Positions 55,054-57,451 of a stretch of 64,000 nucleotides of DNA are shown here, one piece after another. The notes beneath the pieces were generated by a model. It saw only the letters and a list, made by a program, of their open reading frames with translations, made no database searches and was not told where the DNA came from. Source of the DNA: Asterias rubens (Eukaryota); the NCBI RefSeq assembly GCF_902459465.1, contig NC_047069.1, forward strand, positions 1,550,001-1,614,000, given 5' to 3'. Each line of letters starts with the position of its first letter. The stretch's first letter is position 1. Made by a program: the position numbers and the translations under genes.

Positions 55054-57451
55054 CTAGCGTGGCTGATGTTGAGAACCACATGTCCCAGACATTTGACCAG
55101 GATGATGGTGGCATTCATAGTCATCACAACATACTGCCACCCTGGAGCACTGTGGAAAAGAGAAACCAAGAATGGTGCAATGAGCATCGTCTCTAGAAAG
55201 AGTATTTTTTAGTCTTTAATACACGATTCTTTTAAAACACTTTATTTAACAAACATCTACCGGTCATCTCAAAATGCTCATTAGTTTCACTACATTTTAA
55301 TGCAGAGCTATGATTTAAGACTTTGTGTGAGTGCTGTGGCTCCATGCTACAGCTAGCATAGCTGTATACTCCGCTATTGAGAAGAGAAAGCTGGGCGAGA
55401 CCAGGTGTTCAGCATGTGGTTGACTGTGTTGACTCTAGTGTTCCATCAAACCCATGCCATTCCCATCATCTCTGGTAATGCTACATGTACACCAAACATT
55501 CTTTGTGACTACATGTCTGTAAAACTTGCTCAGAAAAGCCTTAATCCACACAGCTTAGTGCCCTCCATTTTTTGATCCGCAAATCAGCAGCAGGTTGAAC
55601 TGCAAACATTTTGTCTCGGAAGCAATCCAGATCGTCACCACTCATCCTTTCCCCATCAATCATGGACTTTGAATTGATCCTGGTCAACATACTCAACAAC
55701 AGTTCTGGTGGTCTCGAGGCTGGTCTTGGACTCGAGACCAGTCTCCCGTTAGACTTGGAATTGAAATCAAACAACAGCCTACAGGGACTCGTACTCAGAC
55801 TTGGGTCGGACAACAGGGACTGGGACTCGGCTGAGAGGATTGACTACAGCACTAGACTCCATGACTTCATATTAAATCTCCACCCTTCAGACACACAGGG
55901 TAAGAACTTCATTGTGGGGCGTGGGTCGTACTCAATCATCTGTCATAATACATGTACCTAATTCCTCCACAGAATCTGAGCTACCAAACTCAAAGCTGTG
56001 TCACTGTCTGCGTCTCTTTCTCTAGTACAGTGTAGATACTGACATTTGCCTGTGGTCTCTTCAAATAATACCTTGTCTGAATCACTGGTACCGCTCCCAC
56101 CACAGCCTGTCTTTCCAGTGCTGCTGCCTCAAGATCGGTGATATTAAAAACCCAGCCATTTTCAGATGTTGTCCACCCAGCGCAACTTTGGTCAGCCCAC
56201 TGAACGATGGCATCCCTCCCTGCTGTCATTGGTTAAGTGATTAGACTGCGCGACTTGCAATCACAGGATTGTGGGTTCAAATCCCCAAGCTAACCGCTGA
56301 TTTCACAATGACTAGAATAAATATTGTCGTCTAGTTACATTTTCTTGATCTGTGCAATTCATAATCATAGACGTTAAACCAATGTTTGTGTGAGAGAGAT
56401 TGGTCGTTGCCAGCTTGGTGTTTATATCCCCCTGTGGGAGTTTGCCGAGTTCCCTTGATTGGAATATCATCTCAACAAACATACCTCCTTGTCAGTGTGG
56501 CAGACGACAAACTATCAACAACATTATCCATGACTGCTCCGACTTCAGAGCCCAATTTCATAGAGCTGCTTAAGCAGAAAAAGTAGCTAAGCAGAGCACA
56601 ACACAATTATGCTTGAAGTGAGTGGCTTTAATGTAAGTTACCAATGTACAATTTTCACCTTGGTTTAGAAATCATTTATTATATGAATATAAACCACAGG
56701 TACACCTTTTTGGATAACTTTCCGTATGGCGCCACCACTTTTTCACTCATTTTTACAAAAAGTAAAAGGGATATCTCAATGAGGTAAATTAGATACTATA
56801 TTATTTCATATCGAATGAAAAAGTGGTGGCGCCATACGGAAACTTTTCAGTTCGAAACTTCGGGACCAAACCGGGGATATAACCCTCCGTATCCTGCCAC
56901 CACTTTTTCAATCTTTTTTACAAAAAGAGATATCTCATTGAAGTAAATTAGATACTATAGTCGTGACTTGATACGGAAACTTTTCCTAACTATTATTTAT
57001 ACTAGTCCATTCCGAACACAATGTCATGTTTTTTCCTGTGGCTCTGAAAAGAACCGAAACCCAACGTTTCAAAATAGTATGGTGCTCTGTTCGTTAGTCG
57101 TGCACCAAGGAGAGTGCAGGCATGGCAGAAATCAAAGTCAATGAATTCACAATCTTCAATACCATTTTGTTTTTACAATTCCCGGGCCCTAAAAAGCAAA
57201 GTAAATGTTGGAATATTCCTTACCGTATCGCCAGTTTTGCCGCACTTGAATCTATGGGTTTCCAGTATTTCTCTTGCGTCTGCAACGGCGTTTTTCATGG
57301 CCTGAAAACGCATGTGGTTTATAACTTCGGCGTGTGCTCTTGCTGCCTGTTCATCTTTATCTGCACGTCTTACGATGGTACCCTGTACGGCTGGCCACAG
57401 TGTGCAGATAGCGGGTACCAGCAGGATCAGGCTCAACGTCACAGAATGCAT
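55054..57451 (-). CDS. Secreted inhibitor-cystine-knot (knottin / conotoxin-like) peptide precursor, 107 aa, 2 coding exons
   Basis: Coding exon 57451-57224 (signal peptide MHSVTLSLILLVPAICTLWPAVQG, propeptide, ..FKCGKTGDT, phase 0, GTAAGG donor) joins 55149-55054 (acceptor ttggtttctcttttccacag; CSRVAVCCDDYECHHHPGQMSGTCGSQHQPR*). The joined peptide is C-x6-C-x5-CC-x4-C-x10-C. Confidence 0.8.
56221..56545 (+). mobile_element. tRNA-derived SINE (family 2) inside the knottin intron
   Basis: A-box-like tggttaagtgattag, gacttgcaatc loop, B-box ggttcaaatccc. Body matches the reverse complement of 3665-3905. Confidence 0.75.

Follow-up and report, generated by a model that had tools for sequence, protein, structure and literature searches.

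The minus strand of the window, a 64,000-nucleotide stretch of Asterias rubens DNA (positions 1,550,001 to 1,614,000 of contig NC_047069.1), carries a spliced three-exon gene whose 107-residue precursor ends in a six-cysteine array of knottin-type spacing. Going by this spacing and by structure prediction, the array very probably folds as an inhibitor cystine knot (ICK), and we tentatively assign the likely secreted peptide to host defence.

Exon 1 (58423..58590, minus strand, as all features of the gene) is non-coding; its extent, approximate at the 5' end, follows from the X1 joint 57458|58423 and from a fall in X1 depth from ~12,000 (bin 58350-58523) to 165 (bin 58524-58697). Since a motif scan of the exon 1 region found no ATG within 58423-58620, the ATG at 57451 is the first start in the message. 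Intron 1 (57459..58422, 964 nt, GT..AG) lies in the 5' UTR, and exon 2 (57224..57458) consists of 7 nt of UTR followed by residues 1-76, its coding part (57451-57224) translating into 76 codons. Intron 2 (55150..57223, 2074 nt, GT..AG, phase 0) is inserted directly before Cys II, with the donor GTAAGG at 57223 and an acceptor ending at 55150, both canonical; it also contains repeat elements at ~56230-56990. The coding part of exon 3 (55054..55149) comprises 31 codons and the stop, and specifies residues 77-107 with Cys II-VI and a predicted β-hairpin around an H-H-H-P-G-Q loop. As both splice sides are in phase 0, the two parts join into a 107-residue precursor. These codon counts and the canonical GT..AG borders uphold the coordinates, the phase on both sides and the cysteine spacing given by the first-pass annotation. 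The 3' UTR (54700..55053, end approximate) has a TATAAA motif at 54727, and the depth there drops from 3885 (bin 54696-54869) to 23 (bin 54522-54695). It consists mostly of three diverged copies of a ~109-nt unit (repeats D1/D4, 54738-55035). Measured between the depth falls near 58524-58697 and near 54700, the message is ~850 nt long.

We did not accept the in-frame ORF further upstream (58422-58811) as an extension of the N-terminus, as its ATGs lie beyond the fall in RNA depth and inside hairpin repeats. The two hairpin (MITE-like) elements, at 58703-58850 and 58858-58998, sit just upstream of the inferred transcription start, and the former carries two TGACGTCA palindromes, which we take to be the CRE consensus.

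Seven runs cover part of the stretch, of which X1, X2, X3 and X5 were compared over the locus. X1 (four pooled runs, RNA by the tool's guess) comes from organism A, whose introns differ by ~2-4% from the window; X5 is DNA-like, and X2 and X3 have small shares. Both junctions expected from the first-pass annotation, 57224 to 55149 and 58423 to 57458, are present in X1, each in one contig and with CT..AC borders on the plus strand: the joint 55149|57224 skips 2074 nt at a depth of 3712, and the joint 57458|58423 skips 964 nt at a depth of 16155. Neither occurs in the contigs of X2, X3 or X5, and X5 contigs run unspliced over the exon borders. The spliced exon 3 contig has a depth of 3712, compared to 9 for the intron-bearing contig of the same run; the mature transcript is therefore abundant in X1, as far as contig depth, a poor measure of expression, can tell. 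With 17 pyrimidines in the 20 upstream positions, the acceptor at 55149 has the best tract among 75 YAG sites between 54900 and 57223, it alone among the 12 best opens a five-cysteine exon, and no joint to the alternative near 56225 appears among the 15 joints listed of 278. Compared to exon 3, X1 depth is five- to sevenfold higher in exon 1 and in the 5' half of exon 2 (~21,000-27,500), and the drop towards exon 3 may reflect an alternative last exon or an assembly effect. In addition, X1 contigs of low depth (8-24) at 55926-56284 inside intron 2, with unspliced ends as shown, could be pre-mRNA, a repeat or a minor exon.

The precursor begins with a predicted signal peptide (residues 1-24, 57380..57451), recognized from hydropathy and by eye, with a hydrophobic core at residues 4-18 and small residues at -3/-1. 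It is followed by a dibasic RR at residues 28-29 (57365..57370), a predicted convertase site, and by a near-neutral predicted propeptide (residues 30-67, 57251..57364) with six basic and seven acidic residues, which ends in E-T-H-R. Segments of residues 30-67 have moderate helical amphipathicity, with a moment of up to 0.52. The propeptide end fits the quadruplet rule of spider toxin processing, and such sites are said to be rare outside spiders (PMC6832493, available text). Exon 2 further encodes the first nine residues of the predicted mature peptide (57224..57250), comprising Cys I (residue 70, 57244-57242) and loop 1. Besides a cysteine at residue 16 in the signal peptide, the precursor has cysteines at residues 70, 77, 83, 84, 89 and 100, spaced C-x6-C-x5-CC-x4-C-x10-C. 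We infer that the signal would be cleaved after Gly24, and that cuts after RR and Arg67 would release a product of 39-40 residues and about 4.2-4.4 kDa, its C-terminal Arg possibly trimmed, with disulfides expected at I-IV, II-V and III-VI. With three disulfides, the calculated monoisotopic mass is ~4203 or 4359 Da. The 40-residue form has four His, four acidic and two aromatic residues, and its calculated charge is +0.3 to -0.7 at pH 7, -0.5 to -1.5 at pH 8.1 and about +2 to +3 at pH 5.5. It has no amidation Gly and, as already remarked in the first-pass annotation, exon 3 ends without RFG.

The knottin-type spacing claimed for this gene is confirmed, and the loops of 6, 5, 0, 4 and 10 residues fall within the consensus ranges of knottin loop lengths. 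The same C-C-CC-C-C array is described in the available text of PMC10138031. The cysteine pattern by itself is not strong evidence: a loose C-CC-C-C scan gave three matches in the window, where 30 shuffles gave 0.23 on average, and the two matches besides this gene look accidental. The Pfam check proposed in the first-pass annotation was carried out on the separate exons, and neither exon alone gave anything significant; the best row was Tachystatin_B for exon 3, with an E of 0.17 and 12.3 bits against a cut-off of 25. PF11410 is absent from the rows of exon 3, scanned alone, and PF02950 and PF07740 have no row for either exon, the domain being split by the intron. Across the genome, PF02950 gave no row and PF07740 three rows below the cut-off, none at this locus. 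A sequence search of the PDB returned bleogen pB1 (E 0.13) and a defensin (E 6), whereas a profile search gave 32 rows, in which Alo-3 and a spider toxin tie at E 0.01 and the rest are mostly spider toxins and tachystatins. The Atlas neighbours (0.78-0.86) are spider toxins and a cyclotide.

We searched metagenomes with the pattern CC-x4-C-x3-PGQ-x2-G-x-C and found 88 stretches, 36 of which (26 distinct) also have the upstream C-x6-C-x5 that the query pattern did not contain. These 36 represent modules of a single type of Cys-repeat protein, high in GC and apparently bacterial, and they score for knottin Pfam families below the cut-off. The identical spacing and PGQ turn in bacterial repeats therefore mark a recurrent structural module and not a toxin. 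The proteins themselves (36 loci within L036-L123, such as L066:115-1755 on the plus strand) have ~500 residues with 11-16 CC pairs in knottin-spaced modules, the one at L066 starts with a lipoprotein-like signal, and no NCBIfam family was found for them. From their sequences, they may be bacterial surface proteins with tandem knottin-like units, of a family not yet described.

Exon 3, which lacks Cys I, was modelled with AlphaFold both unaligned and in a 27-row alignment with the 26 bacterial modules. The aligned model has a pLDDT of 75.4 with strands at 11-15 and 22-26, and the unaligned model a pLDDT of 62.8 with strands at similar places; a β-hairpin from Cys V to Cys VI is thus predicted in both (pLDDT 63-75). 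Fold searches with the unaligned model found no match. With the aligned model, all six Foldseek rows are knottins (E 3.3-9.1), tachystatin B being the first, and six of 48,161 chains reach Z 2 in VIA, all of them knottins as well (Z 2.1-2.5, rmsd 1.8-2.6 over 27-31 residues), including Evasin-3 and a Momordica peptide, which we take to be knottins. All 12 fold rows thus agree, with weak scores, and none of the fold or sequence scores reaches significance. The aligned model is biased, since the bacterial modules aligned with exon 3 are unrelated to it and were selected for the same motif. The knot is accordingly unproven, because the model omits Cys I and the alignment favours that answer; taken together, we consider the ICK fold of the peptide highly probable on the modelling.

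Among defence knottins, the peptide resembles Alo-3 (PDB 1q3j), bleogen pB1 (PDB 5xbd) and tachystatin B (PDB 2dcv and 2dcw), which are also its top weak fold rows. They all share the CC pair, a short loop, a last loop of 10 residues that turns at Pro-Gly or Gly-Gln, and a Gly two positions before the last cysteine. However, the peptide has a near-neutral charge, without the cationic character of the PF11410 and PF11478 peptides, and a long propeptide, loop 3 has four residues compared to three in Alo-3 and pB1, and all scores are insignificant. Convergence, by which knottins have arisen repeatedly, most likely accounts for the likeness. The His-triplet loop, thought unusual for a knottin in the first-pass annotation, is so only in part, as the antifungal Alo-3 also has a His right after the fifth cysteine and a Pro-Gly turn in its 10-residue loop. 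A similar qualification applies to the conotoxin and spider toxin framework proposed earlier. The peptide shares with O-superfamily conotoxins and spider ICK toxins the spacing C-x6-C-x5-CC-x4-C and the order of signal, propeptide ending in Arg and mature peptide, but it differs in having no toxin family score for either exon and no gene family with a hypervariable mature region, the trait of PF02950 and PF07740, and the same spacing occurs in bacterial repeats. To our knowledge, no venom apparatus is known in Asterias.

The CRP-I peptides of Mytilus are likewise marine invertebrate pre-pro-peptides with a C-C-CC-C-C array and a non-coding first exon, according to the available text of PMC10138031. 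They are described there as a fast-evolving family of ~50 mostly cationic paralogues with the spacing C(X3-6)C(X1-7)CC(X3-4)C(X3-5)C and with the whole mature peptide in the last exon. Membership was rejected, as the sea star peptide has a last loop of 10 residues instead of 3-5, an intron inside loop 1 that leaves Cys I in exon 2, and apparently one gene.

Closer to home, the KASH2 (KARTESH) and CHUPA peptides of Asterias rubens come from the same genus and share the layout of signal, spacer, convertase site and C-terminal Cys-rich peptide, with a disulfide-braced hairpin related to the knot (PMC11891777, available text). They have four cysteines (the DDH fold, a two-disulfide hairpin) and an acidic spacer, whereas the present precursor has six and a neutral spacer of mixed charge, so that an identity with them was rejected as far as that text goes. 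Pro5, Pro10, Tyr14, Tyr23 and Phe25 of KASH2, taken from the PMC11891777 supplement, do not fit the peptide, and no KASH2 structure matched at E 10 in the PDB sequence search. Agatoxin-like peptide/CCWamide and agouti/AgRP are endogenous peptides of knottin type, encoded like the present one at the C-terminal end of a short precursor. In the available texts, the former has eight cysteines, an amidated aromatic C-terminus and an intron at the cleavage site (PMC8557429), and the latter ten cysteines and an RFF motif (PMC3397983); six cysteines, an intron before Cys II and the missing amidation Gly and RFF led us to reject both identities. A genome search with PF05039 gave nine rows below the cut-off, all elsewhere. 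The earlier suggestion of six-cysteine CCRFamide-type precursors in echinoderms found no counterpart in the literature searched, where CCRFamide is named, by title, for arthropods and cephalopod venom and for no echinoderm, nor in the main text of an ophiuroid neuropeptide survey, which has no occurrence of "CCRF". The available text of PMC6158917 lists the family name without definition. Judged by the RF-amide in that name, identity was rejected for want of a C-terminal RFG. An 11-residue motif of the peptide has no occurrence in the open-access literature searched, and no six-cysteine echinoderm knottin was found there. To judge from that literature, the predicted knottin appears to be the first with six cysteines recorded from a sea star, the sequences of PpCrAMP and strongylocin lying outside this comparison.

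Relatives were sought separately for the two coding exons. The exon 2 protein has no relative among database proteins of 41-133 aa, and its 90 candidates among proteins of 134-2000 aa include none at E 1; phmmer over 1.84 billion representatives gave none at E 0.001, and the Atlas search with exon 2 no usable match. The 40-residue frame with exon 3 matched nothing among proteins of 71-2000 aa. None of the 217 matches of a metagenome pattern search was confirmed, and viral contigs gave no match; with so short a sequence, distant orthologues could escape all of these searches. By comparison, two single-exon GPCRs of the window are exact in NCBI/UniRef, each clustering at 90% with an Asterias amurensis protein. 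Since the searches with exon 2 and the exon 3 frame are blank while neighbours are present, the peptide gene seems to have no protein model in the sets searched, those of A. amurensis included.

The gene is apparently single-copy, as proposed before: each exon matches the genome once by protein, and exon 2 once by DNA, and no paralogue lies within 184 kb around it, though distant paralogues could be missed by such sequence comparison. The exact-spacing pattern has 23 matches over the genome, compared to 13 in the control, and inspection by eye recognizes a knottin-like exon at this locus alone; the loose pattern has 265 compared to 99, none convincing among the 30 read of 100 listed. Knottin Pfam profiles gave only sub-cut-off rows across the genome. 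One candidate, L171, was rejected as a Cys-rich shadow frame of a hydrophobic exon. Another stretch, L170:1501-1581 (G000:C16:1489285), reads C-x5-C-x5-CC-x4-C, is followed by a stop and preceded by a possible acceptor, and lies 1.4 kb upstream of an AF10-like start; it scores Toxin_12 at E 3.6 and is likely a chance occurrence. Within organism A, the X1 contig at 54943-55149 deviates by a single substitution and an 8-base gap in the UTR, and none of the 96 coding bases of exon 3 differs, whereas for an X5 contig eight differences are listed over 229 aligned bases of the intron (10 for the whole contig). This contrast between different runs is marginal (Fisher p 0.059). There is no sign of an accelerated mature region as in venom or CRP-I families.

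We propose that secretion of the precursor is likely, as is its cleavage to a predicted knottin of 39-40 residues, for which host defence through a specific target, with no membrane lysis, is the most likely role, held tentatively. The His-His-His-Pro-Gly-Gln hairpin loop, which adjoins an acidic patch, might be the surface that binds a molecule exposed on microbes or parasites, and might take on a positive charge at acid pH alone (about +2 to +3 at pH 5.5, about 0 at pH 7-8). The near-zero charge at pH 7-8 speaks for the binding of a specific target via the His-rich hairpin rather than for membrane lysis or a gating-modifier toxin. Defence is placed first because the weak look-alikes lean there, the best by sequence being defence knottins (Tachystatin_B, E 0.17; bleogen pB1, E 0.13; Alo-3 by profile, E 0.01), and because the peptide is absent from the A. 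rubens neuropeptide precursor survey, in its text and supplement as searched. Against this, a near-neutral peptide with two aromatic residues appears unlike the cationic antimicrobial knottins, CRP-I-type families are large and fast-evolving whereas this gene is apparently single-copy with 0/96 coding bases changed, and Alo-3 ties with a spider toxin, with spider toxins and a cyclotide as Atlas neighbours, which by sequence may point away from defence. A convertase-released neuropeptide or paracrine signal on a knottin scaffold, acting on a sea star receptor or channel after the fashion of agatoxin-like peptides or agouti proteins, is possible and only somewhat less likely, and single copy and conservation place it next. 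Signal peptide, RR site, spacer and C-terminal Cys domain have the layout of a neuropeptide precursor, the apparent single copy and the unchanged exon 3 would fit a conserved ligand, and neuropeptides usually have orthologues across a class; exon 2, however, has no relative among the 1.84 billion representatives. AgRP2-type knots also begin with C-x6-C-x5-CC (PMC3397983, available text), but the cysteine counts and motifs of ALP/CCWamide and agouti known from those texts differ, there is no amidation signal, and the absence from the survey as searched weighs here too.

The remaining readings of the peptide are all improbable to different degrees. The His triplet with Asp/Glu could chelate Zn or Cu or plug a metalloenzyme, making the product a secreted enzyme inhibitor or metal-binding miniprotein of mucus, gut or coelomic fluid. 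The four His and four acidic residues among its 40, with a net charge near zero, would suit such a role, as would protease inhibition, common among knottins (PMC10138031, available text), yet no inhibitor family matched in Pfam or the PDB, and we regard it as rather unlikely. There is a smaller chance that the six cysteines pair otherwise, or that the product is a 78-residue protein from residue 30 (calculated mass ~8683 Da) that keeps a helical arm. The fold evidence is weak and incomplete, Arg67 is monobasic in a quadruplet said to be rare outside spiders (PMC6832493, available text), and the amphipathic helical segments of 30-67 would suit a longer form; the knottin identity of all 12 fold rows and the sub-cut-off knottin scores of bacterial modules of identical spacing speak against a different pairing. 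Least probable, and very unlikely, is an ion-channel toxin against prey or predators, like conotoxins and spider knottins. The cysteine spacing, the spider toxins among the weak neighbours and a quadruplet-like propeptide end (PMC6832493, available text) recall such toxins. However, no toxin family scores, no genome match exceeds the cut-off, no paralogue was found, the mature exon has no excess change, and the spacing recurs in bacterial repeat proteins. A cationic and hydrophobic patch is typical of gating-modifier toxins, and the peptide has none.

If the preferred fold is right, it would extend to echinoderms the knottins, a scaffold of major importance among toxins and defence peptides and in drug design. 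Whether DDH is ancestral to or derived from ICK is debated (PMC11891777, available text), and the peptide provides a deuterostome data point for that debate. More speculatively, and with a small chance of being correct, it might be an independent sea star knottin whose gene records a DDH-to-knot step, exon 3 supplying the hairpin core and the propeptide exon Cys I, and which acts as a pH- or metal-switched His-loop ligand of an undescribed kind. Together with the four-cysteine KASH peptides, Asterias would then hold both ends of the disputed transition in a deuterostome. Sea star antimicrobial peptides number one in the available text of a 2025 review (PMC11767717). That a gene with abundant transcripts is missing from public protein sets, even in a well-studied genus, indicates that small spliced peptide genes are overlooked, and a 40-residue peptide is amenable to direct synthesis and testing.

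The housekeeping neighbours reported for the window are indeed present. Downstream of the peptide gene and convergent to it is a gene for an L22-family ribosomal protein (PF00237; one exon scores E 2.4e-4, under the cut-off), with a mitochondrial-type N-terminus by eye, followed by HPF1 (PF10228) and two 3'-5' exonuclease genes; upstream is an MBT-repeat gene, identified by eye from translations. HPF1 (minus strand) and the L22-family gene (plus strand) appear head to head, ~250 nt apart, at 48790-49037. The exonuclease genes are tandem two-exon genes (16034-17399 and 21856-23616) with a PF01612 3'-5' exonuclease domain and a C-terminal CxxC pair. A rhodopsin-type GPCR cluster of at least five single-exon genes (7405-13881 and L032-L033) is located 40-80 kb from the peptide gene.
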